Assembly (NCBI GenBank): GCA_964373715.1
Contig: CAYJVR010000003.1
Coordinates: 47,050 to 111,049, forward strand
DNA from: an uncultured Planctomycetia bacterium
GTDB taxonomy: Bacteria; Omnitrophota; Gorgyraeia; 1-14-0-20-64-10
Reading direction: 5' to 3'
DNA length: 64,000 nucleotides
The position numbers and the translations under genes were made by a program. The notes under the pieces were generated by a model. The model was not told the DNA's origin. It saw only the letters and a program-made list of their open reading frames with translations, and made no database searches. This document shows positions 2,720-39,878 of the stretch, one piece after another; the first letter of the stretch is position 1, and each line of letters begins with the position of its first letter.

Positions 2720-3147
2720 CTGCCGATCCCTTTATTAAGCAATTCCTTGATGATCGGACCACTTGCCGGCGGGAATTCGAAATCGGCCAGCTCTTTGGCC
2801 TCCACCCATCGGAATTCGGAACATTCAATCGGCTGAGGCTCCCGCCCCTCCAGGATACCGCATGAAAAACAGTGGAACCTCAGCAGGCGGTTTGGATACT
2901 GGTATTCGACAACCTGTATCTCTTCCATCACCTTCACCGGAATCCCCAGTTCCTCCCTGATTTCACGGACGAGGCAGCCCCTCATGTCCTCATCGGGATT
3001 CAGTTTCCCTCCCGGGAATTCCCACAACCCGCCGAAACTGTCCTCCGGCAGCCTCTTTGCGATAAGGAAGCGCCCATCCCGCTGGATCACGGCAATCGCG
3101 ACGATCAGCGGGGCCTCCATGGGCTGTTTTTCCTCCGGGTTAAGCAA
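2716..3147 (-). CDS. Nudix hydrolase, MutT-like (8-oxo-dGTP diphosphatase family)
   Basis: Nudix box GGLWEFPGGKLNPDEDMRGCLVREIREELGI. Collinear with E. coli MutT. Confidence 0.8.
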   Translation of the reverse strand: MLNPEEKQPMEAPLIVAIAVIQRDGRFLIAKRLPEDSFGGLWEFPGGKLNPDEDMRGCLVREIREELGIPVKVMEEIQVVEYQYPNRLLRFHCFSCGILEGREPQPIECSEFRWVEAKELADFEFPPASGPIIKELLNKGIGR

Positions 3148-3877
3148 GAAGGCGTCCTCCGTCCACCGGAATCATGGCGCCGGTGACGAAGTCCGTCCCG
3201 CAGACAAGGAAGAGTACCGCTTGCGCGATATCCTCGGGAGACCCGCATCTCTTTAAAAGGGTGCGCCGCACCGCCTTTTCCTTTTCCTTGGCCGACGTGC
3301 CCGGAGGAAAAAGAATGGGCCCAGGGGCTATGGCGTTTACCTGGACTTCAGGCGCAAGAACTTTAGCCAAACCCCGGGTCAAGACTGCCAGGCCTCCCTT
3401 GGCCGCAGAATACGGCAGGTAGTCGATCCAGGGGGAGAAAACTGAAACGTCCACGATATTGATGATCTTCCCGGCCCCCCGCCGTTTCATCGCCTTACCG
3501 GCGGCCTGCGCGAACCACCAGGGTCCCGACAGATTGGTCCGGATGCTCTCTTCCCACTGAGCCTCAGTCACGTTTTCAAACGGGGTCGGATAAAAGGAGG
3601 AGGCGTTATTGACCAGCACATCCAACCGGCGGAAGCGGAAGATGATCTGCTTCACCGCCTCTTTTACCTGGTCCGCGTCCCGCTGGTCCACCCGGTAGGC
3701 GGCCGACCTCACTCCCTGTTTCCGGATAAGGGCAACCGTCCGACCGGCCTCGGTCTCGGAGGTATTGTAGGTGATCGCCACATGGCAGCCCCGGGAAGCA
3801 AGCCCTAGAGAAACCTGCCTGCCGACCCTCTTGGCACCTCCGGTGACGAGCGCCACCTTCCCCTTGATGTTCATCAA
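3140..3877 (-). CDS. SDR family oxidoreductase, FolM/pteridine-reductase-like
   Basis: TGGAKRVG Rossmann motif, NNAS, YSAAK catalytic motif, APGPILFP. Pattern-level resemblance to E. coli FolM / PTR1. Confidence 0.6.
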   Translation of the reverse strand: MMNIKGKVALVTGGAKRVGRQVSLGLASRGCHVAITYNTSETEAGRTVALIRKQGVRSAAYRVDQRDADQVKEAVKQIIFRFRRLDVLVNNASSFYPTPFENVTEAQWEESIRTNLSGPWWFAQAAGKAMKRRGAGKIINIVDVSVFSPWIDYLPYSAAKGGLAVLTRGLAKVLAPEVQVNAIAPGPILFPPGTSAKEKEKAVRRTLLKRCGSPEDIAQAVLFLVCGTDFVTGAMIPVDGGRLLA

Positions 3878-4299
3878 AACTGCTCCAGAGATTTTCTTCC
3901 GGAAAACCCGGTTTCGATGTCATGCCAAAAGCGAACCCTATCCTCCCCCTCTTTCCAGCAGAGGTAGACCAAGGTCTCCCCGCGGGAGGCGAAAAAGTCG
4001 ACAAGCCCTTCATTGAGATCTTTCAACTCAACGCCGAGCCCATTGAACGCTTCGAGCTTCGCCTCAAAGACTTTCAGCCCCTCCTCAATGAGCTTGTCCA
4101 ACCGGGCCACCTCGGTTTCCGCCTTCGGGCTAACCGTCCCATCCTCCCGGAGCCACGAAAGCTCTTCAACCGTTTTCTTGCGCTCCACCCCGAAAATCTT
4201 CTCCCGTTGAACGCGCAGCTCCTTCAATCTCCCGGTAAGTTCCGGGATCATGCTGTTGGCCTCATCCGCGGTAAAAACTTTCAGTCCCTCATCCTTCAT
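3874..4299 (-). CDS. DUF2203 family coiled-coil protein
   Basis: 141 aa. The N-terminus MKxFTADEANSMIPELT matches DUF2203 starts. Translationally coupled to both neighbours. Confidence 0.5.
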   Translation of the reverse strand: MKDEGLKVFTADEANSMIPELTGRLKELRVQREKIFGVERKKTVEELSWLREDGTVSPKAETEVARLDKLIEEGLKVFEAKLEAFNGLGVELKDLNEGLVDFFASRGETLVYLCWKEGEDRVRFWHDIETGFSGRKSLEQF

Positions 4300-4302
4300 G
4301 GA

Positions 4303-5133
4303 TCAGACCTCCACAAACTCCAGAGGAACCGTCTTGGGCGTAAGCCCCTTCTCGGCGGACCAATCCAGCAGTTTCTGCATCGCCTTGGCGCCGTCCGGCC
4401 TGCAGTCCACGCTCCACCGGTTGACGTACATGCCGACAAACCGGTCCGTAAGCGCCGGACTCAAGCCCCTGCCGTACTGCTGGGCGTAACGGAGCGCCTC
4501 ATCCCGGTGGGCGAACGCGTAATCGAGGCTGTCCTTAAATGTGGACGCCAGCTTCTTCAGGACGGCAGCGCCTAAATCCCTGCGGACCACATTGACCCCG
4601 AGCGGGACCGGAAGGCCGGTCGTCTGTTTCCACCATTCCCCCAAATCAAGCACCTTCGAAAGCCCGCTGGAGGAATAGGTGATCTGCCCTTCGTGGATTA
4701 AAACCCCCGCGGGTATCTTCCCCTCGTGGACTGCCGGCAGTATCTGATCAAACGGCATCATCACGAGGTCTGCTTCCCCTATCGCCAGCTGCAACAGCAG
4801 CGATGCGGTGGTCAAACGGCCTGGGACCGCGATCCGGACTTTCTTAAGTTCTTCAACCGTCATCGGACTTTTGCTGACGACCAGCGGACCGTAGCCTTCG
4901 CCGACGCTGGCGCCCGTTGTCAGCAGGAGGTAGCGGTCGGCGATGTAGGGATAGGCATGAAGGGAAACCGCCGTCATTTCGAGCTCGCCGCTCATCGCCC
5001 GCTGGTTAAGCTCTTCGATCCCCTCCATGCAGTGGGTCACCGTCATCCCGCCCAGTGGGACCTTCCCGTTGGTCATCGCATAGAACAAAAAAGCATCGTC
5101 CGGGTCCGGGCTGTGCCCAATGCGGATGTTCAT
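4303..5133 (-). CDS. mqnD: 1,4-dihydroxy-6-naphthoate synthase (futalosine-pathway menaquinone biosynthesis), MqnA/MqnD family
   Basis: The N-terminus MNIRIGHSPDPDDAFLFYAM matches the MqnD SPCPNDTFIFYA motif. Size is 276 aa. Confidence 0.65.
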   Translation of the reverse strand: MNIRIGHSPDPDDAFLFYAMTNGKVPLGGMTVTHCMEGIEELNQRAMSGELEMTAVSLHAYPYIADRYLLLTTGASVGEGYGPLVVSKSPMTVEELKKVRIAVPGRLTTASLLLQLAIGEADLVMMPFDQILPAVHEGKIPAGVLIHEGQITYSSSGLSKVLDLGEWWKQTTGLPVPLGVNVVRRDLGAAVLKKLASTFKDSLDYAFAHRDEALRYAQQYGRGLSPALTDRFVGMYVNRWSVDCRPDGAKAMQKLLDWSAEKGLTPKTVPLEFVEV

Positions 5134-5151
5134 GAAAACAGCTCCTTTAAC

Positions 5152-6210
5152 TTAAGAAGGTTCTGCTTCTTCTCCGGGCTCATCAAATTCATCACCCTCT
5201 TCTTCATCGTCATCTTCCGTGAGCCCCTCAAAATCTTCATTCGGCGCCAACTCGCTGAGGAACCGTGTAAAAACCCTTTCAAGAAGCTCATCCTGCCGAT
5301 CCACGTAGATCAGGATCAAGTTCCGCAGCATGCGCGCCAGAATCTCCCGGTTGGTGACCCCATCCATGAACTCCGACTGGTAGGGGTACCCCGCTTCAAC
5401 GATAAACTGGATGCACTCCGCCCGGGTGAGGAACCGCCCCTCGTTAAAAGTATCCAGGTACATTTCTCCCCCGTCCATCTCATATTTCAGCATAAAATGG
5501 CCCGGGATGCCGACCCCTTTAATGGGGAGCTTCAAGCGGTGCGCCAAAAGCATATAAAGGACAGACAAGCTGATCGGAATTCCCAGCTTCCTGTCCATCA
5601 CCCTATTCAGAAAGCTGTTCTGGGGATCAAAATAATCATTCCAATTCCCCCGGAATCCCTCCCTCTTAAACAGGTAGTCGTTCAGGACCCCTAAATGAGC
5701 GCGCAGCTTCTCAGCCGGCTTCAGTTTGGAACGGACCTTCTCCGCCATCTCATCGAGCCGGCGCTGGTAAATCTGAGCGTCAATGTTCGGGTAACTGACG
5801 CGGGCAAGGAGAAAGACCCCCGTCTCCAAGTCGATCTGCTCATCCGGCAACGCGGAAAGGCCCCCCCACTCCGTCAACAACGAGGAGAGTTGGACCTCCC
5901 TCAGGATTTTGCCCGCCTCGACGCGGACGGCGGCGTCTTCGTGAGACTTTGACGCCTTCTTAAGGTATGGGACCGCCTGGGCCCCCATCTCAATGAGCTT
6001 CGCCCGGGCCGTCTCAACAATCTGGGGATCGTCATCAGCCAGAAGTTTCAACAGCGCCAATAGGTTAGATTCAGGTGTAAGATCGGCCATATCTGGAGGT
6101 AATTGGTCACTTAGCTTACCGGAGCCCACAAGCGATGTCAACGCCTCCCTATCGACGGAAAGAGATTGTGGTATATTTATCCTGAAGGAACAACTTGATA
6201 GATGCCTCAA
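5152..6210 (-). CDS. Transglutaminase-like/TPR protein (SirB1/UPF0162 family) with an acidic C-terminal tail
   Basis: 352 aa with helical repeats and a DE-rich C-terminus. The start is probably an internal Met. Confidence 0.45.
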   Translation of the reverse strand: MRHLSSCSFRINIPQSLSVDREALTSLVGSGKLSDQLPPDMADLTPESNLLALLKLLADDDPQIVETARAKLIEMGAQAVPYLKKASKSHEDAAVRVEAGKILREVQLSSLLTEWGGLSALPDEQIDLETGVFLLARVSYPNIDAQIYQRRLDEMAEKVRSKLKPAEKLRAHLGVLNDYLFKREGFRGNWNDYFDPQNSFLNRVMDRKLGIPISLSVLYMLLAHRLKLPIKGVGIPGHFMLKYEMDGGEMYLDTFNEGRFLTRAECIQFIVEAGYPYQSEFMDGVTNREILARMLRNLILIYVDRQDELLERVFTRFLSELAPNEDFEGLTEDDDEEEGDEFDEPGEEAEPS

Positions 6211-6981
6211 CTGCTTGATCTACGGTTGATTGTTGAAGAGGAGGCGCCTCCGCTTGAATTGGAGATGCCGAGGGTTTACCGCCGTCCTCCGATGCCCCCT
6301 CCTCCCCGCCGCAAAAAAGCGGTCCGCAAACTCGCACGGGAAGCCCGTGAGGCTTCCGGCCGATCCGACTGGCCTGCGTTCGGGTTAGCCTATGGAGAGC
6401 TGACCGTCCTTTTCCAGCCGATGATCCAGTGGGGGCTTTCCTGCTGGGAGTATCTGCTTTCCAGTGAAGGATGCCGATTCGTCTGCCGCTTGCCGGAAGA
6501 AAAAAGGTACTGCCGGGGGGATTACCGGGCCTTCTCGGAGAAAGAGTACAATTCACTTGTTTATAAGGCCTTCAAGAACTGCCTTCTCGCCTATTCTTCA
6601 CAGCGGGAACCCGGAGATTTCAGCTTGTTCGTCAGGAGAAACTTCTGGCCCGAACTCCGGGAACAGTATAAAGCGATGGAACAACCTCCGGATCCCCGGC
6701 AGAGGATGCTCACCGGCTACTCGTACCTGCGCTGCGTCCCCTATCAGTTCCTGAACGACCTGCACCATGCCCGGGTCACCAAGATAATCTCCCGCTTGCC
6801 TGAGAAGATGCGCCGGGTCATTGAGCTCTATTACCTGCGTTTCTTCACGAAAGAGGCGGCGCAGGAGGCTTTGGGGATCAACCGGCTGGCTTTCCGGCGG
6901 AGGCAGCTGGCCGCGCTGCGCTGCATCTCAGAGGAAGACCGCTTAAGCTACGTTCTTCTGCGCCAAATCGAGCGATATTAA
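6202..6981 (+). CDS. Hypothetical protein with a degenerate ECF-sigma-like region 2 and a sigma-70 region-4-like HTH C-terminus. Start uncertain.
   Basis: The C-terminal LPEKMRRVIELYYLRFFTKEAAQEALGINRLAFRRRQLAALR resembles sigma70_r4_2. There is an upstream FSLFVRRNFWPELREQYK region-2.2-like segment and a Pro-rich N-terminus. Alternative starts are at 6265, 6292 and 6421. Confidence 0.4.
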   Translation: MPQLLDLRLIVEEEAPPLELEMPRVYRRPPMPPPPRRKKAVRKLAREAREASGRSDWPAFGLAYGELTVLFQPMIQWGLSCWEYLLSSEGCRFVCRLPEEKRYCRGDYRAFSEKEYNSLVYKAFKNCLLAYSSQREPGDFSLFVRRNFWPELREQYKAMEQPPDPRQRMLTGYSYLRCVPYQFLNDLHHARVTKIISRLPEKMRRVIELYYLRFFTKEAAQEALGINRLAFRRRQLAALRCISEEDRLSYVLLRQIERY

Positions 6982-8214: not shown

Positions 8215-8913
8215 TTAGACCCCGCCCTTCCGGATCGCGAGCTTCACCTCGCCGATCGCGCGGGTCACATTGATCCCCCGGGGACAAGCCTCGACACAGT
8301 TGAAGACGGTCCGGCAGCGCCATACCCCGTCGTTGCCGTTGAGCACGGCAAGGCGCTCCTCTTTCCCCTGGTCACGGCTGTCGAAGATAAACCGGTGCGC
8401 CTGGACAATCGCCGCCGGCCCGACGTAATCCGGGTTCGACCAAAAAGAGGGGCAGCTGGTCGTGCAGGCGCCGCAGAGAATGCACTTGGTCGTGTCTTCG
8501 AATTTGTCCAGTTCGGCGGGAGACTGGATTCGTTCCTTCTCCGGCCTCTCCGATTTCTCAACCAGGTACGGCATGACGGAGCGGTATTTCTGAAAGAAAC
8601 CGTCCATATCCACGATGAAATCCTTTAATACCGTGAAACCTTTCATCGGCTCAATCATAATCGGCTGCTTCACGTGCTTGACCAGCATCTTGCAGGCGAG
8701 ACGGTTCCGGCCGTTGATCAGCATCGCGTCGGAACCGCAGACACCGTGCGCGCAGGAACGCCGGTAGCCTAAACTGCCGTCCAGCTTTCCCTTGATCTCC
8801 TCCAATCCGTCCAAAACCCGATCGGTCGGCTCCATCTCCACCTGATACATTTCCCAATGGGGCTTCTGGTCCTTCTGAGGGTCGAACCGGAGGAGCTTGA
8901 ATGTCACCTGCAT
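8215..8913 (-). CDS. sdhB: Succinate dehydrogenase/fumarate reductase iron-sulfur subunit
   Basis: 2Fe-2S, 4Fe-4S and 3Fe-4S Cys clusters (CxxxxCxxC...CxxCxxCxxxCP). Confidence 0.9.
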   Translation of the reverse strand: MQVTFKLLRFDPQKDQKPHWEMYQVEMEPTDRVLDGLEEIKGKLDGSLGYRRSCAHGVCGSDAMLINGRNRLACKMLVKHVKQPIMIEPMKGFTVLKDFIVDMDGFFQKYRSVMPYLVEKSERPEKERIQSPAELDKFEDTTKCILCGACTTSCPSFWSNPDYVGPAAIVQAHRFIFDSRDQGKEERLAVLNGNDGVWRCRTVFNCVEACPRGINVTRAIGEVKLAIRKGGV

Positions 8914-10640
8914 CAGTATTTTCTCTCTTGTGGTTTGAATTTTGTAACGACCACCGGTTTATAGCTCAACACCACGCGGTCGCCGTCCCTGTTCGCCAGG
9001 CTGTGCCTCAGGAATTTCTCATCGTCCCGTTTCGGGAAATCTTCGCGGCAGTGCGCCCCGCGAGACTCCTCGCGGGCCAGCGCGGCGGTAACAGTCACCT
9101 GCGCGAGGTCCAGCAGGTGCCCAAGCTCAAACGCCTCCAGCAGCTCCATGTTGTAGCGGGTCCCGGTGTCCTGCAAGCGGACGCCGGCATACCTCTGCTT
9201 CAGCCCCTTCACAATATCGAGCACCTTCTCCAAATCCGGCTTCACCCGAAAGACGGAGGCCTTATCCATCATTTCCTTCTGAAGCTCCTTTCGGATGCCG
9301 GACACGCTCTCTTTGCCGCTGCCGCCGCGCAGCGCCACGATCCGAGAGCTGACCGCCTCTTCCGGGTTCGATGGAAGCGGGACAAGGGAGCCTTTCTTCA
9401 CGAACTCGGCAATCTGCTTCCCACCTTTGCGCCCGAAGACGATAATGTCCACAAGCGAGTTGGTGCCTAGCCGGTTCGCGCCGTGCACCGACACACAGGC
9501 GCACTCGCCGGCCGCGTAGAGACCCGGCATCACGGTGTTCTTCTCGTCGATCACCACCTCGGCGTTCGCGTTTGTCGGGATGCCTCCCATCGCGTAATGG
9601 GCGGTCGGCTGAATCGGAATAGGCTGCTTTGTCGGATCCAGGCCCATGTAAGTCTCCACGAAATCGGTAATGTCCGGCAGTTTCTCATGAATCACCTTGG
9701 CGTCCAGGTGGGTCAGGTCGAGATGGACGTAATCCTTGCCGTCAATCCCTCTTCCCTCGCGCACCTCGATCGCGATCGCGCGGCTGACCATGTCCCGCGG
9801 CGCCAGGTCCTTGAGCGTGGGGGTGTAGCGCTCCATGAACCGCTCGCCGCTCTTGTTGCGCAGTATCCCCCCCTCGCCGCGGGCCGCCTCGGTGATCAGG
9901 ATCCCCATCTTGTAAATGCCGGTCGGGTGGAACTGGAAAAACTCCATATCCTCAAGAGGGATCCCCCGGCGGTAAACCACCCCCATCCCGTCGCCGGTCA
10001 GCGTCAGCGCGTTGGAGGTGATCTTGAACATCCTGCCGCAGCCGCCGGTGGCGAACAGCACCGCCTTTGCGTGGAACGTGTGGATCTCGCCGGTCGCTAT
10101 CTGGATCGCCACGACGCCGCAGGCGGCCCCCTGGTTCATCAACAAGTCCACCACATGGTACTCGTCGAAGAAGGTGACCCCCTGCTTGATGCACTGCTGG
10201 TAAAGGGTCTGCAGGATCATGTGGCCGGTCCGGTCGGCCGCGTAGCAGGAGCGGCGCACCGGGGCCTTTCCAAACTCCTTCGTGTGCCCGCCGAACGGGC
10301 GCTGGGCGATCTTCCCATCCGGCGTCCGGCTGAACGGAAGCCCCATGTGCTCCAACTCATAAACCGTTTCAACCGCCTCGCGGCACATCGTTTCGATGGC
10401 GTCCTGGTCGCCGAGATAATCGCCCCCCTTGACCGTATCGAACATGTGCCATTCCCAGCGGTCCTCTTCCAGATTGCCGAGCGCAGCGCCGATGCCCCCC
10501 TGCGCCGTTCCTGTGTGGGAGCGGGTCGGATAAAGTTTCGACAGAACCGCGGTCTTCGCCCCCTCGGAGGCCTGAAGCGCGGCCATCAAGCCGGCCCCGC
10601 CGGCTCCCACGATAATCGCATCGAACTGATGGACGGCCAC
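8913..10640 (-). CDS. sdhA: Succinate dehydrogenase/fumarate reductase flavoprotein subunit
   Basis: 575 aa with an N-terminal FAD GAGGAG motif and conserved HPT/RxxxH regions. Overlaps the sdhB start. Confidence 0.9.
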
Positions 10641-32077: not shown

Positions 32078-32133
32078 AAACGGCCGCGGCCCTTGTTTTC
32101 ATGCTGGCCTTCGCCCGCGTCAAAATCTAGAAA

Positions 32134-32433
32134 TCAAGCAGGCTGGAGAATCTCGGCGAGCTTTTCGGGATGGAGACGGCGCAATTCTGGAATCCTATAC
32201 TCCTCCGCCAGTTGTGCAAGCTTTCGATGTACCTGGACTGTGACTTTTCGGGGACGAACCCATAGAAGCTCTATTCCAACAAGATCCCCTTTGCTGTCCA
32301 AATCAAGATTCACAAAATCAGCATATTCTACAGTCTTCGAAACAGACTTCTCGCTCAAAGCGATATAGCTGGCTTTTGCTTGCGGATCATACGTTATCTC
32401 TAATATTTTAATCATCTTATGGAATCCACCCAC
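32134..32433 (-). CDS. DUF2283 domain protein (antitoxin-like partner of DUF4258)
   Basis: 99 aa, MKILEITYDPQAKASYIAL...GDLVGIELL pattern. Local GC clearly below the flanks. Confidence 0.6.
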   Translation of the reverse strand: MGGFHKMIKILEITYDPQAKASYIALSEKSVSKTVEYADFVNLDLDSKGDLVGIELLWVRPRKVTVQVHRKLAQLAEEYRIPELRRLHPEKLAEILQPA

Positions 32434-32651
32434 CCTGCAGTGATAACAATGATATTATCTCTATCCAATTCTACTACAGCAAAACAGGTTCTGCTTCCTA
32501 TTTCCTTCCAAAATTTCATTGTTCTGAGGAGCTTCCCAGGACTCTTTTTATCTGAATAACGCACTGTAGCGCGGATATGGTCGGGCGTTACCCCTCTCTG
32601 TTTCATTCTTTTATGAACGTGGTGGGTATAAATGAATCGCTGCATGACCAC
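32412..32651 (-). CDS. DUF4258 domain protein (toxin-like)
   Basis: 79 aa with a conserved HVxxRMxQRGV-like N-terminus. Overlaps the DUF2283 gene by 22 nt in an AT-rich island. Confidence 0.55.
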   Translation of the reverse strand: MVMQRFIYTHHVHKRMKQRGVTPDHIRATVRYSDKKSPGKLLRTMKFWKEIGSRTCFAVVELDRDNIIVITAGWVDSIR

Positions 32652-32757
32652 ATTATATCATGCAAATATATTGCAATAAAACATAATACCCGTATTGACA
32701 ACAACCCCCTTTCTACAACTTTCCTGTATTCAAACCTTCAGTTATACTATTAAGTCT

Positions 32758-34230
32758 ATGGCTAAGACACTGTTTGAAAAGGTGTGGGACCCGCACGTCG
32801 CGGTGCAGAACCCCGACGGCACGGTCCTGCTTTACATTGACCGCCACCTGGTGCATGAGGTCACCTCGCCGCAGGCCTTCGAAGGGCTGCGCCTGACCCA
32901 CCGGAAAGTGCGCCGGCCTGAGCTCACGTTCGCCACGATGGACCACAACGTGCCGACCTCCGCCACAGAGCGAGGCGGATCCGCCTCAGGCGGAAACGAC
33001 CGGATGAATATCGCCGACCCAATCTCGAAGGCGCAGATCGACGCCCTTTCAGAAAACTGCCGAGAGTTCGGTATTACCCTCTATGACTTGAAATCGGATA
33101 AACAGGGGATCGTCCACATCATCGGGCCGGAACTGGGGATCACCTTGCCCGGCTCAACGATCGTCTGCGGAGACTCCCACACCTCGACGCACGGGGCGTT
33201 CGGCACGCTGGCGTTCGGGATCGGCACCTCCGAGGTGGAACACGTGCTGGCCACCCAAACCCTGCCCCAGAAACGGCCGAAGACCTTTAAAGTGGAATAT
33301 ACAGGCACCCTGAAAGCCGGCTCAACTCCCAAGGACATGGTCCTGAAGATGATCGGGTTGATCGGCACCGCCGGCGGAACCGGCTACGTGATCGAGTACG
33401 CGGGCGAGGCTGTGCGGAAACTCTCGATGGAACAGCGGATGACGATCTGCAACATGACGATTGAGGCGGGAGCGCGGGCCGGCATGATCGGGCCGGATGA
33501 GACCACGTTCCAGTACGTCGCCTCCGGCAACCGGCCGTTCGCGCCGAAAGGGGCGAATCTCGAAAAGTCCCTGGCCTATTGGAAGACTCTGCCCTCCGAC
33601 CCGGAGGCGAAATTCGACCGGACGCTCTCTATCAACGCCTCGGAGATCGCACCGCAGGTCACCTGGGGGACAAACCCCGGCATGGTGATGGATGTGACCG
33701 GGCGGATCCCGGAACCGGACAAGGTGCCAGGCTACTCCCGGAAGGATGTCGAGCAGGCGCTCGCCTACATGGGGCTTACCCCCGGCACCCTGATCACCGA
33801 GATCAAGCTGGACCTGGTCTTCATCGGCAGCTGCACCAACGGCCGGATCGAGGATCTGCGGAGCGCGGCGAAGATTTTCAAAGGGAGAAAGGTGGCCAAA
33901 GGGATCAAAGTGCTGGTGGTCCCCGGCTCCGAGCAGGTGCGCAAGCAAGCGGAGAGCGAAGGGCTCGACAAGATCTACAGGGAGGCCGGCTGTGAGTGGC
34001 GGTTCGCCGGCTGTTCGATGTGCCTCGGGATGAACCCGGACCAGCTGAAGTCCGGCGAACGGTCGGCTTCGACGTCAAACCGGAACTTCGAGGGGCGGCA
34101 AGGCAAAGGGGGGCGCACCCACCTGGTCTCGCCGGAGATGGCGGCCGCCGCCGCGATCGAGGGGCATTTCGTGGACATCCGCACGTGGAATGAAAAACGA
34201 AAGGAAACCCTTACCCTTCCCTCTCCCTGA
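32758..34230 (+). CDS. leuC: 3-isopropylmalate dehydratase large subunit
   Basis: Aconitase-family Cys ligands and the [11 protein letters not shown] start. The stop codon sits in the loop of a GC-rich palindromic repeat. Confidence 0.9.
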
Positions 34231-34875: not shown

Positions 34876-37800
34876 TTACGCGTACATCAAGATGAAGTGG
34901 GCCCTTCCCTCCAGATCGGTAAAAAGTATCCCCTGCACATTCTGCGATGGGGGGATATTCAGCGTGTTTCGGAAAATCAGAACAAGCATCTGGACAGGGT
35001 CCAGGGCGGACACCGCCTCGGCTGTCGGATAAACGCGCACAGAGGCCATTTTCTCTGGCTTTACCTTCAGAGAATCCAGCATTTCGTTTTCGAGGATCAA
35101 GCCTATCTCTCCCCAGTTAAACCTGCGGAGCTCCTCTTCGGTCTCCGGAAGGACGGCCAACCGGAACGCAACACCGGCCAGAGGACCGGGCAGATGCTCC
35201 TTCGCTACCTTGTACAGTTCGGAACTTTGGACGTAAACGGGAACAACCGTCAAATCGAGCGTTGCCGTCACCGCCCGAGCTCCCTGCCTCCCCATGAACT
35301 CCTCTATCCTGTTCTGCTGTTTCTCAGTTAAGCGGCTGGAATATTCCGGCAGATAACTTTCCAAAATAGTTTTGGCGGTATGAATCTCTATGCCTTGAAT
35401 CGTCAGCGGCACAGCGGATATCTCTTTCCGGAAGGCGCTGCCGCCGACTCCGGTTTGCTTAAAATCAAACCTGCCTGCAATCCGGGCCATTTCACCGTTG
35501 TCCGACGAGTCGTTCACCCGTACCTCCTGCACCCCCGGTACCACCATTAAAGACCACAGAAGCTCCTGAAATATCCTCGCGCCTATTCCGACGGTCTGCA
35601 GGTCCTGTTGGACAGTAAATTCCGATATCCGCCCAACTGAAGGGGCCTCAGCATCGATCTCCGCGACCCCGAACCCAATAAGATCACTTCCCCGTCGCGC
35701 CCCCACGGCAAAACGTCCGTCTGCCTGAGACAACAGCTCCACGACGGCCTGGATGGGGGAGGGGTTTTCTTCCAAACTGGGAGCCAATCCGGCCGGCCCG
35801 CCCCGCAAGACCGGCTTCGGGAGATCCACCCTTCTCAACGGAAGCTTCATGACTTCTTGATTCTTCGCGTAGGAATACCACCGCATAGGAACCGCCAGAT
35901 ACTGCGCCTCCGATACGGAGCTGGCATGGACCATCACCACCTCGTTCATCCAAAGGGAGGGCTCAAAAGGCCCCCCTTCGTCCCACCGGCCGAAATTCAC
36001 CCTCAAGTTGTATTCGGAAAGATCCGGATAAACGAACTGCACAATCTCCGGCGTTGCGGCGTACACGAGAAAATTATTGCCCCGCGCCCAATCGGCAATG
36101 AGATCAATAGCTCCGCGTCTCCAAACATCCAGAGTACGGCACTGCAGCTGGTTGAACTTTTTATAGCCGTCGCCCGGCCGGGCTTCCTGAATCAAGACGG
36201 CAATCCGACCCTGTTTTGTCAAATAGGTGCTGACGAGAATCTGGCCGAACGCGCCTGGAGCCGCGGCGTAGTCCCCTCCTCCGTTAAACTGAAGAACCTG
36301 CAGCTCGGGATGGCTCTGAAAATCGCCGTAGGGAAAAACCTGGACTCTGTCATACTGACCTACCTGCATCTGGGCTTCCATGTTCCCGTACCGCTCTGTC
36401 TTCCAGCTAAATCTCCCGTTGGTCTTCAGCCAGCCCGCCAGATTACGGGAGAACACTCCCGGCACTTCAACCCCGCGCAACTCCGTCACAAACCCTCCGG
36501 GGCCGGCGGCAAACTCCGGCCTGAGAGCCCGCCAATAACGGCTCGGGAATAGCACTCCCGGCACCGGTTCATAACCCAGACTGCGGGCGGCGGCAACAAT
36601 CGGCTCATCCGGGTCATCGGCGCTCACTAAAGAGATCCCAATCCCCTGCTTTTCGAAATGGGCCTGGGCGGAGGCAAGCAGATTTCGGCTGGTTTTCGCG
36701 TCACGGTACGCCGGCAAAAGGACAAGCTCTGAAATTTGTCCGATCGATGCCGGGAAATCTTTCAGCGCACGAACGCGGACCTCGGCGAGCGCGTAACCCA
36801 CCACCCGGCCGGAACCTTCGTTCGCCACAACCAAAACCCCGAGGTCCGGGTTGCGGATCATCTCCCGGAAAAATCCCTTGCCCCCATCCTTGCCGGACTG
36901 TTTTGTCTCTAGCCCGGCTTGCTGTCTGAGTTGGATAACTTGGCCGAGGATCGGCTCTAAAACACTGTCGTCCCGGTTCTGAACGGGCCTGACCCCAATC
37001 TCTTCCAGGCCTGCCTCCGGCCCATTTGGGACCACCGGCTGCTGGGGCTCTGCCGGCAACTGCGCGGCGGCTGGAGGCTGCGCCGGCCGGCCGATATAGC
37101 GGTACCAGTTGAACTCTTTTGATTCATCGGTAAAATGGGATCTGCGCAAAATAAGAGGAACCGTTTCCCACCGCCGCGGCTCACGATCGGCCACCGGTAA
37201 ATAATAGTTGTACTGGATTGTCTTTTGCCGGATATCCGGCCGCTGTCCGCGCGCCTGTTCCGGCCGAATCAGATAGACCTCCATCCCCTGGCGCTTTCCC
37301 CATTCGCCGATGGCTTCAATGATTTCAGAGCGGATCTCGATTTCGTCCGGATGCTCCAAATTCAGCGGCCCGGCCAAGATCTGAACCCTTTCGATCACGA
37401 TGGCATCCTTGCCCTGCTCATCCTCATACCGGTCTAAGTAAACATGAACAAGCGCCCTGCCCAAATGAAAGTAATTTTGCCAAAGAAGGTTCCGCACCAA
37501 AAAATCATTTAACTCCGGACTGGTTTCAACCCACTCATTCAGGGCAATAGCGCCGATGATATTAAACGGCTTATCCCTGTCCACAAACCGGAGCGCAACC
37601 CGGGCCCGCCCATAATGTTCCGTATCCCTCTGAATCTCGCCGTACTGGATAAGGTACTGGTCCAGTTTGTCGGCCAAATCTCCCATCTTCACACGCATGA
37701 GGACCGGCGCCTTGGAAACCTCTGGTTCCTCCATGCCAGCCTTTCCTTTATAGAGAAACCAGAAGGCTTCCCCCTCCAACGTTGTGAGCAATGAGCCTGA

Positions 37801-38577
37801 AATCTTCAGAGGGGCCGATTCCCACGCCGCCCCATCGACAGACTCTTCATAGTTGCGCAGTCTGGTTGCCTCCCTCATATTGGGAAGGACCTTTTGAATA
37901 AGATCCGGCTGTATGAGATGTACAGGAATGCCGCGCGCTCTGCCCCACTCCCCGATCGCCTCCAGCAGAAGCGAGAGCCTGCCGGAAATCTCTTCCGAAT
38001 GATCCAAGCGGTCCACCCCGGCTAAGACCTCCACCCTTTCAATAAGCAGATGGTCTTTCCCTTCGGCCGTCTGGTAGCGGGCCAGCGACACCTGGACAAG
38101 CCCAGGGCCCAGATCCTCATAATTCCAGTTTGGAAGAACAACCAGATTCCCCTGGAGAACAGGCTGTGCCGACACCCATTCCCATGCCCCCAAAAGGGCC
38201 GCGGTGCCGGTAGCCTCGTCGTTCTGCACTATCCGCATGAAAACTCTCGCCTGGCCGTAGGCGGCCGTATCAAACCGGCTCTCTCCCCTCCGGGTCAACG
38301 CCTGGTCGAGATCTTCGGCAAGATCCCCTAAGGGGACCCGTTTCAAAACAAGCGGTTTTCCTTGCCGGACGGAAGGAGATTTTGGCCTGGAGATTTCCAG
38401 GGTAGCCGGCTGGGAGACGCCCGGAAGGCTGGACTTTGACTGGGGCACATCCACCAGGGAGTTGACGAGCTGCTGATCGAGACTCGCCCCTTCCGACGCG
38501 TTAGTTTGGCGCATCGCGAAGGCAGGCGAAGGTGTGGCAAGCAATAAGCTTAAACCAACGCTTATTGCCCGGCGCAT
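34876..38577 (-). CDS. Large secreted hypothetical protein: signal peptide, tandem duplicated ~200-aa domain of unknown function, then two GNAT-like acyltransferase-fold domains
   Basis: Signal peptide MRRAISVGLSLLLATPSPAFA. Residues ~85-290 and ~300-510 are clear paralogous repeats (VLKRVPLGDLAEDLDQ... versus VLMRVKMGDLADKLDQ..., both carrying an IERVxxLAG...EAIGEWGxxxG motif). There is a GNAT motif-A-like VQQDLQTVGIGARIF near residue ~1000 and a degenerate GNAT around residue ~650. The ORF track starts it 11 codons further upstream (38610). Confidence 0.6.
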   Translation of the reverse strand: MRRAISVGLSLLLATPSPAFAMRQTNASEGASLDQQLVNSLVDVPQSKSSLPGVSQPATLEISRPKSPSVRQGKPLVLKRVPLGDLAEDLDQALTRRGESRFDTAAYGQARVFMRIVQNDEATGTAALLGAWEWVSAQPVLQGNLVVLPNWNYEDLGPGLVQVSLARYQTAEGKDHLLIERVEVLAGVDRLDHSEEISGRLSLLLEAIGEWGRARGIPVHLIQPDLIQKVLPNMREATRLRNYEESVDGAAWESAPLKISGSLLTTLEGEAFWFLYKGKAGMEEPEVSKAPVLMRVKMGDLADKLDQYLIQYGEIQRDTEHYGRARVALRFVDRDKPFNIIGAIALNEWVETSPELNDFLVRNLLWQNYFHLGRALVHVYLDRYEDEQGKDAIVIERVQILAGPLNLEHPDEIEIRSEIIEAIGEWGKRQGMEVYLIRPEQARGQRPDIRQKTIQYNYYLPVADREPRRWETVPLILRRSHFTDESKEFNWYRYIGRPAQPPAAAQLPAEPQQPVVPNGPEAGLEEIGVRPVQNRDDSVLEPILGQVIQLRQQAGLETKQSGKDGGKGFFREMIRNPDLGVLVVANEGSGRVVGYALAEVRVRALKDFPASIGQISELVLLPAYRDAKTSRNLLASAQAHFEKQGIGISLVSADDPDEPIVAAARSLGYEPVPGVLFPSRYWRALRPEFAAGPGGFVTELRGVEVPGVFSRNLAGWLKTNGRFSWKTERYGNMEAQMQVGQYDRVQVFPYGDFQSHPELQVLQFNGGGDYAAAPGAFGQILVSTYLTKQGRIAVLIQEARPGDGYKKFNQLQCRTLDVWRRGAIDLIADWARGNNFLVYAATPEIVQFVYPDLSEYNLRVNFGRWDEGGPFEPSLWMNEVVMVHASSVSEAQYLAVPMRWYSYAKNQEVMKLPLRRVDLPKPVLRGGPAGLAPSLEENPSPIQAVVELLSQADGRFAVGARRGSDLIGFGVAEIDAEAPSVGRISEFTVQQDLQTVGIGARIFQELLWSLMVVPGVQEVRVNDSSDNGEMARIAGRFDFKQTGVGGSAFRKEISAVPLTIQGIEIHTAKTILESYLPEYSSRLTEKQQNRIEEFMGRQGARAVTATLDLTVVPVYVQSSELYKVAKEHLPGPLAGVAFRLAVLPETEEELRRFNWGEIGLILENEMLDSLKVKPEKMASVRVYPTAEAVSALDPVQMLVLIFRNTLNIPPSQNVQGILFTDLEGRAHFILMYA

Positions 38578-38747
38578 TGAGAGTGGCGTGTAGGCAGAAT
38601 CTATGATCATCTTATCTTTACAATCCAGTCAACCTATTAAGAAGTATGTCTGAAACAGGGCTAGAAATACAAGGGATAAAACAAGATTTATATTCCTTTA
38701 CTAGCTGAACGTGGGATTATTGTCATTGCGGGGGTTTACGCTGGCTT

Positions 38748-39878
38748 CTAGGAGAGTTCGAGGAACTTCGGGAAGGAGGTTAAGATTTCACAACCGGTTT
38801 CGGTAACCAAAACATCATCTTCGATCCGGATGCCGCCTACCCCGGGATAATAAAGCCCCGGCTCCACCGTGACAATCTGCCCTGCTTGGAGAATATCACT
38901 GACCCCGCCGATCCGGGGAGCTTCATGGATCTCCAGCCCCAAACCGTGACCGGTGCCGTGAAAGAAGCCGGTCATCCGGCCGTTTTTCTCGCCGGTTTTG
39001 AACCCTTCCTTATCGAAATAATCCAGAATCGCCTGGTGGATCTTCTGCCCGTCCTCGCCGGCCTTGACCCTATCGAAGCCGATCTGCTGGCCGTGCTGAA
39101 CAGCGGCGTACATCCGCTTAACCTCTGGGCTCGCGGTGCCGCGCAAAACGGTGCGGGTAATGTCTGCGTAGTAGCGGCTCTTCTGAGAAACAGGAAACAC
39201 GTCCAGCACGATCGGCATATGGGCCTTGAGCGGCCCGAACCCAATGCAGTGGGGATCGCAGGCCTGGTTGCCGCCGGCGATGATCGTTTCCCTGGCGAGG
39301 CAGTCGGAACCCATGAGACTCAGGTGCATGTATTTCCGGAGCAGTTCGGAGGTCAACGGCTGGCCTTTCAGCCACAGTTCGCCGTTCTTGATCTCCGACT
39401 GCTGGATCAGCCCGATCGTGGATTTCAGCGCATCTTCCGTCATGCGGATTGTTTCGCGGACGGCATCCACTTCCTCTTTGGTCTTGATCATCCGCTGAGG
39501 CAGAAACGGCTCTGGGCCGACAACCAGCTCGTATCCTTTGGCGCGGAGCTTATCGGCCAGCACCACCGGAAAAGTGGCCGGCACCTTGAGAGAAACGACG
39601 GAATTCTCCTTAAGAACCAGGTCCAGCGCGTCGAGCATGCCGGGATTGGCGACGCCATCAGCCTTCGCTTTCGCCAGAAGCCGGGAAACGGAAAGGACTT
39701 CATCCACCGATGATTCCGCCCTGGCCCGGTCCACCTCCAGGTCGCTCATCAAAAGAAATTTGCGGCCGGCGATCTGAACGAAGACAAACGGATCCGGCGC
39801 CCAGAAATGGGTGGCGTAGTAGAGGTTGGCGTCCTGCTCGCTCGCCGCGATGATCAACAGAGTCTCTTTACCCGCCAT
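38748..39878 (-). CDS. M24 family metallopeptidase (Xaa-Pro aminopeptidase/dipeptidase)
   Basis: Creatinase N-terminal domain plus a pita-bread domain with HGxGHxxGLxxHE and an EPG motif. Confidence 0.85.
   Translation of the reverse strand: MAGKETLLIIAASEQDANLYYATHFWAPDPFVFVQIAGRKFLLMSDLEVDRARAESSVDEVLSVSRLLAKAKADGVANPGMLDALDLVLKENSVVSLKVPATFPVVLADKLRAKGYELVVGPEPFLPQRMIKTKEEVDAVRETIRMTEDALKSTIGLIQQSEIKNGELWLKGQPLTSELLRKYMHLSLMGSDCLARETIIAGGNQACDPHCIGFGPLKAHMPIVLDVFPVSQKSRYYADITRTVLRGTASPEVKRMYAAVQHGQQIGFDRVKAGEDGQKIHQAILDYFDKEGFKTGEKNGRMTGFFHGTGHGLGLEIHEAPRIGGVSDILQAGQIVTVEPGLYYPGVGGIRIEDDVLVTETGCEILTSFPKFLELS

Follow-up and report, generated by a model that had tools for sequence, protein, structure and literature searches.

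A signal-peptide-bearing Omnitrophota protein with predicted divergent GNAT-fold modules, a recurrent boundary motif and a variable genomic slot

Omnitrophota are widespread, uncultured bacteria thought to live off other cells; most are described as ultra-small cells with traits of host dependence, possibly of predation or parasitism, and with many giant open reading frames (ORFs) whose function is unclear (PMC10066038). Their long multi-enzyme proteins, a present-day puzzle, have been reported to carry methyltransferase, GNAT, HATPase_c and SecA-related domains (10.1101/2023.11.21.568195; 10.64898/2026.06.07.730766). Proteolytic processing of these proteins is suspected, with the cleavage points stated to be unknown (10.1101/2023.11.21.568195). 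Here, we analysed a stretch of 64,000 nucleotides (nt) from an Omnitrophota genome (GCA_964373715.1, contig CAYJVR010000003.1, positions 47,050 to 111,049; hereafter the window) and describe a protein of 1,244 amino acids (aa) encoded between leuD and an M24 peptidase gene. Behind a predicted signal peptide, it carries three copies of a rare module, termed X, two GNAT domains and a conserved C-terminal domain, termed D.

Proteins with several GNAT folds on one chain have been characterised before. In the tandem GNATs MshD and VipF only one of the lobes is catalytic. VipF, a translocated effector, is delivered into another cell in which acetyl-coenzyme A (acetyl-CoA) is available (PMC10936415). 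As in MshD, GlmA and Legionella VipF, the window protein is predicted to combine several GNAT folds with one canonical, likely catalytic lobe. However, tandem GNATs have two modules as against a predicted five here, which are parted by linkers and boundary motifs; VipF bears a type IV secretion signal where the window protein has a Sec-type signal peptide; and no sequence relationship with the tandem GNATs was detected. A different use of a related fold is known from the C-terminal domain of Mycobacterium tuberculosis ICL2 (Rv1916), which serves as an allosteric sensor by binding acetyl-CoA or propionyl-CoA (PMC6788997). Its structures (PDB 6edw, 6ee1, 8g8k) compare to X at 7–12% identity and a TM-score of ~0.35. 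Unlike the X protein, ICL2 is cytoplasmic and fused to a lyase, and CoA binding is at most predicted for X.

Within the phylum, the long and giant proteins described as ‘Archaeovorin’ and ‘Dockerin’ (Pfam ‘Module 1’) share methyltransferase, HATPase_c, GNAT and SecA-like domains with the relatives of X. The giant-protein criteria (more than 10,000 aa, many transmembrane helices, and glycoside hydrolase, dockerin, C39 or S8 domains) do not describe the 1,244-aa protein, which falls in a subclade delimited by the short peptide motif GLEE and not described, as far as searched, in the papers on the Archaeovorin and Dockerin types. MARTX and polymorphic toxins offer an analogy only, in their variable enzymatic modules between constant ends, short boundary motifs and variable loci; their RTX repeats, cysteine-protease domain, Rhs, PAAR and VENN features and immunity gene are absent here, and no homology was detected. 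The combination of leader, boundary motif and tail that we report, and the variable slot in which the gene lies, are not described in the literature searched.

Modules of the 1,244-aa protein

The modules follow in the order signal peptide, X1, X2, GNAT1–X3, GNAT2 and D, listed below from the N-terminus (relatives are cited by number, P for proteins and L for loci; ↓ marks the predicted signal-peptide site). The ratio of non-synonymous to synonymous substitution (dN/dS, Nei–Gojobori) refers to the window gene and its ortholog in locus L004 (GCA_023248015.1, JAHFFH010000035.1).

34876..38610, minus strand: whole gene, ATG start, 1244 aa plus stop codon; ortholog with 85% identity in the same slot of L004; dN/dS 0.20
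38515..38610, minus strand: signal peptide, residues 1-32 (n-region RR, h-region ISVGLSLLLA, c-region TPSPAFA↓M); sole hydrophobic segment, conserved in L004; dN/dS 0.165
38353..38514, minus strand: low-complexity spacer, residues 33-86; 66% identical to the ortholog; dN/dS 0.30; holds the degenerate leader motif SLDQ at 43-46 (GLEQ in the ortholog)
37738..38352, minus strand: X1, type-a module with a predicted divergent GNAT fold, residues 87-291; dN/dS 0.16
37726..37740, minus strand: boundary motif AGMEE, residues 291-295 (AGLEE in the ortholog)
37069..37704, minus strand: X2, type-a module, residues 303-514; 41% identity to X1 and 34-50% to X modules of P0006-P0012; dN/dS 0.15
36976..37068, minus strand: Pro/Gln-rich linker, residues 515-545, with AGLEE at 533-537 (nt 37000-37014; AGLEE in the ortholog)
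36499..36975, minus strand: GNAT1, residues 546-704; PF00583 at 581-680; degenerate CoA loop R636-x-x-K-x-S; 45% identity to the N-terminus of P0011; dN/dS 0.20
35824..36498, minus strand: X3, type-b module, residues 705-929; loop QEARPGDGYKKF (808-819) at the β4-α3 position; dN/dS 0.19
35767..35778, minus strand: degenerate boundary motif SLEE, residues 945-948 (DLEE in the ortholog)
35416..35763, minus strand: GNAT2, residues 950-1065; PF13673 at 964-1036; intact motif A Q1005-T-V-G-I-G1010 (nt 35581-35598); dN/dS 0.30
35383-35397, minus strand: QGIEI before D, residues 1072-1076 (QGIEI in the ortholog); aligns with GLEE of relatives
34879..35415, minus strand: D, conserved C-terminal alpha/beta domain of 179 aa, residues 1066-1244; dN/dS 0.10

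Purifying selection acts on every module (dN/dS 0.10–0.30), with the linkers at 0.3–0.4. Because dN/dS is low throughout the modules, an artefact or a pseudogene is ruled out. A full-length query matched one other cluster among 5.8 billion proteins (word-indexed search), the 85%-identical ortholog, and a scan of genome contigs with the whole protein gave no match. The gene call deposited for that ortholog (P0002, 1169 aa) begins at the equivalent of residue 89, 88 codons late: in L004 the ORF continues in frame (3559-3822) to an ATG at 3559, giving 1257 aa that include the conserved signal peptide, so the deposited start is probably wrong. The 1257-aa version (P0003) is present in a Logan assembly.

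The N-terminal sequence, MRRAISVGLSLLLATPSPAFA↓M, is organised into n-, h- and c-regions in the manner of a Sec signal peptide; its short h-region has a hydropathy (1.53) below transmembrane level. No transmembrane segment and no other strongly hydrophobic stretch follow it, and the leader is conserved in the ortholog under constraint. These features are consistent with the signal peptide and export that an initial annotation, made from the window sequence, had proposed. Pairs of arginines followed by hydrophobic residues, resembling Tat leaders, occur in about one third of the family’s signal peptides, including those of the window protein (MRRAIS), the L009 protein (IRRFLA), P0009 (IRRLLV), P0034 (FRRFLR) and P0030 (WRRCL); the others are without them.

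Segment-wise self-comparison delimited the repeat at residues 87-291 and 303-514, where X1 and X2 share 41.4% identity in an alignment of 210 aa (E 1.7e-46) and carry the motifs quoted for them in the initial annotation (VLKRVPLGDLAEDLDQ and VLMRVKMGDLADKLDQ; ..IERV..LAG..; ..EAIGEWG..). The annotation had recognised these two copies as homologous, which they are; the pair is not the complete set, since a third copy, X3, lies at 705-929 between the two canonical GNAT domains. X3 shares 21–22% identity with X1 and with X2 (E 2.5e-6 and 6.5e-6), and the three copies can be aligned over their full length, closing in a common W-x-Y strand. X1 and X2 are adjacent, with AGMEE between them. GNAT1 and X3 are contiguous and the pair recurs in P0011; because no boundary motif separates them, the arrangement suggests that they work as a unit.

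Both GNAT cores noted earlier, one degenerate and one intact, stand in the profile searches. In the full-length scan GNAT1 scored 33.6 bits against PF00583 (cut-off 20.7; residues 581-680) and GNAT2 28.6 bits against PF13673 (cut-off 23.6; residues 964-1036), both above the Pfam gathering thresholds. NCBIfam gave a sub-threshold RimI match and nothing more, and neither domain had a match below E 0.1 among PDB sequences. The pyrophosphate-binding loop of motif A, (Q/R)-x-x-G-x-(G/A), is present in GNAT2 as Q1005-T-V-G1008-I-G1010, the canonical QxxGxG. The corresponding loop of GNAT1, R636-D-A-K639-T-S641, is degenerate, X1 and X2 lack motif A, and X3 has a different Gly-rich loop, P812-G-D-G-Y.

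What X is depends on the level at which it is compared. Searches with single sequences and profiles against Pfam, NCBIfam and PDB sequences, GNATs included, found no match beyond chance level, in line with the earlier remark that the repeat matches nothing recognised; at the level of the modelled fold it does have a likeness. A model of X1 has the GNAT core β4-α3-β5-α4-β6-β7 and is nearest to the acetyl-CoA-sensing domain of M. tuberculosis ICL2 and to NatD. GNATs bind the CoA pyrophosphate at the β4-loop-α3 site, and the conserved X block ‘LLIERVEVL - AGVDRLDHSEEISGR - LSLLLEAIGEWGRA - VHLI’ maps to β4, loop, α3 and β5 of the model. Aligned with hhalign, the X profile gave a non-significant alignment to GNAT1 in the expected β4-α3-β5 register. 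On this modelling it is well supported that X is a divergent GNAT fold, which would give the protein five GNAT-fold modules. With ~205–225 aa, X modules are longer than a typical GNAT and have β4-α3 loops of their own (..LAGP..LEH.. in type a, QPGDGYR in type b). As modelled, X is a sequence family that is new and very rare but has the known GNAT fold; it is not a new fold or a new chemistry. The two GNAT domains are ordinary. They match GNAT profiles, and the repeat has no match in Pfam, NCBIfam or PDB sequences to a carbohydrate-binding or peptidase family.

The tail, D (1066-1244), likewise has no match beyond chance level in Pfam or among PDB sequences, and hhalign found no relation to the X profile. 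It stands at the extreme C-terminus of several family members, 54% identical in P0011 and ~28–30% identical in P0034 and P0009, and also ends the L009 protein. P0011 corresponds to the complete C-terminal half, either as a fragment or as a homolog, with GNAT1, X3, a GNAT2 remnant and D. Another C-terminal module, different from D and also recurrent (‘..ALFSRAQE..’), comes after GLEE in P0008 (793-935), P0019 (2540-2668) and P0022 (2059-2187), which suggests that alternative tail domains exist in the family.

The X family, its boundary motif and the leuD–M24 slot

Homolog and neighbourhood searches placed the protein in a lineage-restricted Omnitrophota family of modular multi-enzyme proteins with secretion leaders. 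The X profile found 37 proteins at E up to 1e-3 among 1.84 billion representative proteins, 24 of them at 1e-10 or below and two of the 37 marginal; besides the window protein with its three copies, 35 other clusters match X at E 1e-80 to 5e-4. A scan of metagenome contigs with type-a X gave no match, and the sole GTDB representative genome found with an X module is an Omnitrophota groundwater metagenome-assembled genome. An alignment of 28 copies splits the family into type a (X1, X2), with ‘..LIERVQILAGP..LEH..ELEIRSE.IEAIGEWG..’, and the commoner type b (X3), with ‘GAFGQ ... LIEEIQPGDGYR.L ... R..LD.WR ... WA ... TPE ... YE..KNY.EPF ... W’. The Gly-rich loop of type b (family consensus QPGDGYR) occupies the same β4-α3 position in the model and is surrounded by many conserved charged residues; it looks like a cofactor or active site, though not the canonical QxxGxG.

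Class-I S-adenosylmethionine (SAM) methyltransferases are the modules most often fused to X, besides GNAT, HATPase_c, Ser/Thr kinase, SecA-like ATPase with HTH_8, trypsin-like peptidase, NAGPA, nucleotidyltransferase and HEAT repeats. Most X relatives have an N-terminal hydrophobic segment and nothing else that resembles a membrane span. The genes around X-bearing genes in L006 and L007 are unrelated housekeeping genes; a type II secretion/type IV pilus ATPase near the X gene in L007 does not recur. The TrxB encoded beside another X-bearing gene is 64% identical to the TrxB of the window. LeuC likewise places the window in Omnitrophota: of the 120 matches listed, the first 60 share 76–85% identity with the window LeuC, and those with a named organism (8, at 77–80% identity) are all Candidatus Omnitrophica/Omnitrophota. 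Giant proteins are among the relatives, one of 6,720 aa and one of at least 6,843 aa. The latter (Ga0209515_10003393) is a single ORF spanning the 20.5-kb locus L008 (2-20530, plus strand), with a type-b X and no GLEE; it is a giant Omnitrophota protein, and X could help to annotate such proteins.

Most relatives open with a signal peptide ending AxA↓LR(P/S/Q/N), for example LPAPSFA↓LRNETTEGAGLEE; the AxA↓(L/M)R leader is seen in ~15 family members, and the window protein has AFA↓MR. In many of the relatives P0006–P0038 the motif [SA][ASTG]-G-(L/M)-E-E occurs once 10–25 residues after the signal-peptide site and again at the boundaries between modules. Across 35 proteins (50,367 aa) we counted 67 copies of G[LM]EE, a 23-fold enrichment over the 2.9 ± 1.6 found in 200 composition-preserving shuffles (maximum 8). 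The sequence on either side of the motif is not conserved and has much Pro, Ser and Ala. The span between consecutive copies is often exactly one X module (220–241 aa, in eight different proteins), and GLEE also precedes unrelated modules (D, methyltransferase, GNAT). Recombination-site DNA was considered as a source of the motif and rejected: codons differ between copies, and the constraint is therefore on the peptide, not on the DNA. Among the papers listed by a literature search, none gave a relevant description of AGLEE or GLEE, and ‘GLEE’ has no occurrence in 10.64898/2026.06.07.730766, the one of the two preprints on long proteins in which the term was looked for.

The slot that holds the gene was compared across syntenic loci retrieved through LeuC orthologs (percentages below, LeuC identity to the window). 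Flanks are collinear, with nuo, thyA, folA, leuC and leuD on one side and M24, flavin reductase, MFS, PlsC and CCA enzyme genes on the other. The flanking genes are 56–84% identical between the window and L009, and 56–97% identical across L004, L009/L010, L016 and L017.

Window and L004: slot holds the 1,244/1,257-aa protein
L017 (85%), 3034-6501, minus strand: protein of 1,155 aa; leader of the same kind, GLEE seven times, a single GNAT (30% identity to GNAT1), no X, no D
L009/L010 (81%), L009 11997-13229, minus strand: 410 aa with leader, AGLEE, ~200-aa helical module, SGLEE and a D domain 23% identical to the window D
L016 (80%): slot empty, leuD abuts M24

Synteny is lost in more distant Omnitrophota. 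Over the ~227 kb of retrieved loci, GLEE-rich ORFs occur only in the leuD–M24 slot. Such variability is expected for cell–cell interaction genes and unexpected for a core envelope enzyme.

Proposed function and its alternatives

We tentatively favour the view that this is a Sec-exported, soluble modular protein that acts on or inside a partner cell (host or prey) as an effector-like enzyme modifying proteins or small molecules. Judging from sequence features, it would cross the inner membrane through Sec. GNAT2 would be the catalytic module for acyl-CoA-dependent acyl transfer, because it is the only one that keeps the canonical QxxGxG. GNAT1, X1 and X2 are most likely non-catalytic lobes that bind ligand or substrate, because they are without this loop and by analogy with the rule for tandem GNATs and the sensor precedent of ICL2, and X3 may, as modelled, use its distinct Gly-rich loop to bind a nucleotide-containing cofactor. 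The cofactors acyl-CoA, SAM and ATP are found in the cytoplasm. The proposed site of action, on or in a partner cell where acyl-CoA is available, follows from the observation that the family’s modules need these cofactors and yet sit on signal-peptide-bearing, soluble proteins, and from the fast turnover of the window gene’s locus between close relatives. We infer the target, as well as any processing at AGLEE.

Several points weigh against this proposal. The genes next to this one encode no secretion system, no marker of a partner cell and no dedicated protease. The GNAT Pfam scores are modest, and with the domains scanned singly each lies near or below threshold (GNAT1 passes PF00583 at 21.6 bits; GNAT2 falls just under the PF13673 cut-off, 19.9 versus 23.6). 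The alignment behind the X model has 6 sequences, the model reaches only low TM-scores (0.3–0.37) against known GNATs, and acyl-CoA binding or catalysis by any module is a prediction from sequence and model. The RR pair in some leaders may indicate export through Tat instead of Sec. Very large X proteins (2,800–6,800 aa; P0014, P0017, P0031, P0035, P0037, L008) are without GLEE, and the motif therefore marks a subclade of the family. The host-dependent lifestyle is assumed from the phylum, and the window holds ordinary biosynthetic genes (leuCD, thyA, folA).

The AGLEE motif is best explained, from its distribution, as a site recognised by a common trans-acting factor, with a processing protease as the most attractive candidate; a docking or modification site fits the same data equally. 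Taken further, the protein could be a polyprotein precursor, in which a trans-acting protease cuts AGLEE-type motifs after export, removes a short N-terminal propeptide and frees X1, X2, GNAT1–X3, GNAT2 and D. This is compatible with a partner-directed enzyme and differs from it only in the working unit; we regard it as possible, if rather doubtful. It would account for the enrichment of the motif, for its unconserved Pro/Ser/Ala-rich flanks and codon variation, and for its position shortly after the signal-peptide site and at boundaries whatever module follows, and it would fit the cleavage of Omnitrophota long proteins proposed earlier, for which cleavage points are not known (10.1101/2023.11.21.568195). 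However, both cleavage and protease are putative, with no candidate protease; two of the five boundary motifs of the window protein are degenerate (SLEE, QGIEI) and its leader copy reads SLDQ; and conserved linker motifs can equally be docking sites, modification sites or structural caps. A broader scheme, which we consider unlikely, would make leader, AGLEE and D the constant parts of an undescribed Omnitrophota secretion-and-processing system, with a dedicated protease cutting Sec-exported polyproteins at AGLEE and freeing modules (X-type GNAT folds, methyltransferases, kinases, ATPases) for delivery to a host or prey cell that supplies their cytoplasmic cofactors, and with the leuD–M24 slot as a hot spot of cassette exchange.

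The initial annotation had seen in the protein a FemX- or MprF-C-like double GNAT and a candidate envelope- or exopolymer-modifying enzyme. FemX and MprF-C likewise have more than one GNAT-type fold, but they act on the cytoplasmic side, using aminoacyl-tRNA; the window protein, in contrast, has a signal peptide. Pfam gave no match to Fem (PF02388) or to the LPG-synthase C-terminal family (PF09924) even at E up to 10, and none of the structural neighbours listed is described as FemX or MprF. Because X3 and a module-boundary motif lie between them, the two canonical GNATs do not form an adjacent double-GNAT lobe, and the comparison is not supported. An enzyme of the periplasm or surface that adds acyl or aminoacyl groups to the producer’s own envelope or exopolymer, possibly from a non-CoA donor, would suit the signal peptide without a membrane anchor and X modules that, lacking a canonical CoA loop, could take another donor; GNATs of Omnitrophota giant proteins have also been speculated to act on cell-wall sugars (10.1101/2023.11.21.568195). 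We nevertheless judge it improbable. GNAT2 has a canonical acyl-CoA loop and acyl-CoA is not expected outside the cytoplasm, the neighbours are housekeeping genes (leuCD, thyA, folA, M24, flavin reductase, MFS) with no polysaccharide, peptidoglycan or lipid genes nearby, the searches found nothing that resembles Fem, MprF or another family of envelope acyltransferases, and close relatives have the slot empty or filled with unrelated modules, which is not the pattern of a core envelope function. Equally improbable, in our view, is a protein that stays inside the producer, its N-terminal segment an uncleaved tether or non-functional and its modules forming a cytoplasm-facing regulatory multi-GNAT protein. 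Such a protein would agree with the view of Omnitrophota long proteins as signal-transduction or regulatory modules, in which methyltransferase, HATPase and GNAT are grouped together (10.64898/2026.06.07.730766), with the cytoplasmic cofactors needed by every enzymatic module type of the family, and with the intracellular acyl-CoA sensor that is the closest structural analogue of X (PMC6788997). The leader argues otherwise: its positive n-region, short h-region (1.53) and AxA site are conserved family-wide and under purifying selection, and by the positive-inside rule the bulk of the protein, C-terminal to the leader, should be translocated. That all five GNAT-fold modules are pseudoenzymes, serving as ligand-binding units of a secreted or surface scaffold for binding or adhesion, seems very improbable. 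Four of the five do lack the canonical CoA loop, large Omnitrophota proteins are often read as adhesins (PMC10066038) and the locus is hypervariable, but GNAT2 keeps motif A intact, type-b X has many conserved charged and polar residues typical of an active or cofactor site, and dN/dS is low in all modules.

The protein that we tentatively regard as a partner-directed enzyme is a compact, tractable member of its family, with the shared leader, the enriched motif, a D domain found in some members, a single likely catalytic module and a variable slot. The boundary motif can be searched as a cleavage site in existing metaproteomes and provides a natural border for module-wise expression, and adding X to domain databases would make large unannotated stretches of Omnitrophota proteins readable.

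Flanking and upstream sequence

The initial annotation’s placement of the gene between leuD and a peptidase gene stands. The stop codons of the gene and of the convergent leuD are 3 nt apart, and the M24 peptidase gene lies upstream across a gap of 137 nt.

38611..38747, minus strand: upstream intergenic region, 137 nt from the M24 peptidase gene to the start codon

The AT-rich upstream region described with it is so only mildly: GC content is 0.50 in the 500-nt window 38500-38999, which covers the 5′ end of the gene and the gap, as against 0.53–0.60 along the rest of the gene. A scan for promoters and terminators up- and downstream of the gene found nothing convincing. The ~110 nt before the start codon are nearly identical between the window (38611-38747) and L004 (3450-3558), for example TTTGTTTTAYCCCTTGTATTTCTAG ... 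GTTTCAGACATACTTCTTRATAGGTTGA, with identity at least that of the adjoining coding sequence (85% at protein level); they are conserved only in L004, with no conservation in L009 or L017. This segment may have a promoter or regulatory role. A search of the window against Rfam gave no RNA family, and the PADLOC models of anti-phage defence had no match to the protein at E up to 0.01.

Between folA and leuC, L009/L010 carry a HicB/HicA-like toxin–antitoxin pair and an O-methyltransferase (8796-9236, plus strand). The corresponding gap of the window (32078-32694) holds no gene of 100 aa or more, a small indel in an otherwise collinear region. Finally, the mechanically called leuC ORF (32695-34230, plus strand; TTG start, 511 aa) is longer by ~45 N-terminal residues than its ~466-aa homologs, which span just 93% of the query, and the true leuC start probably lies further downstream.

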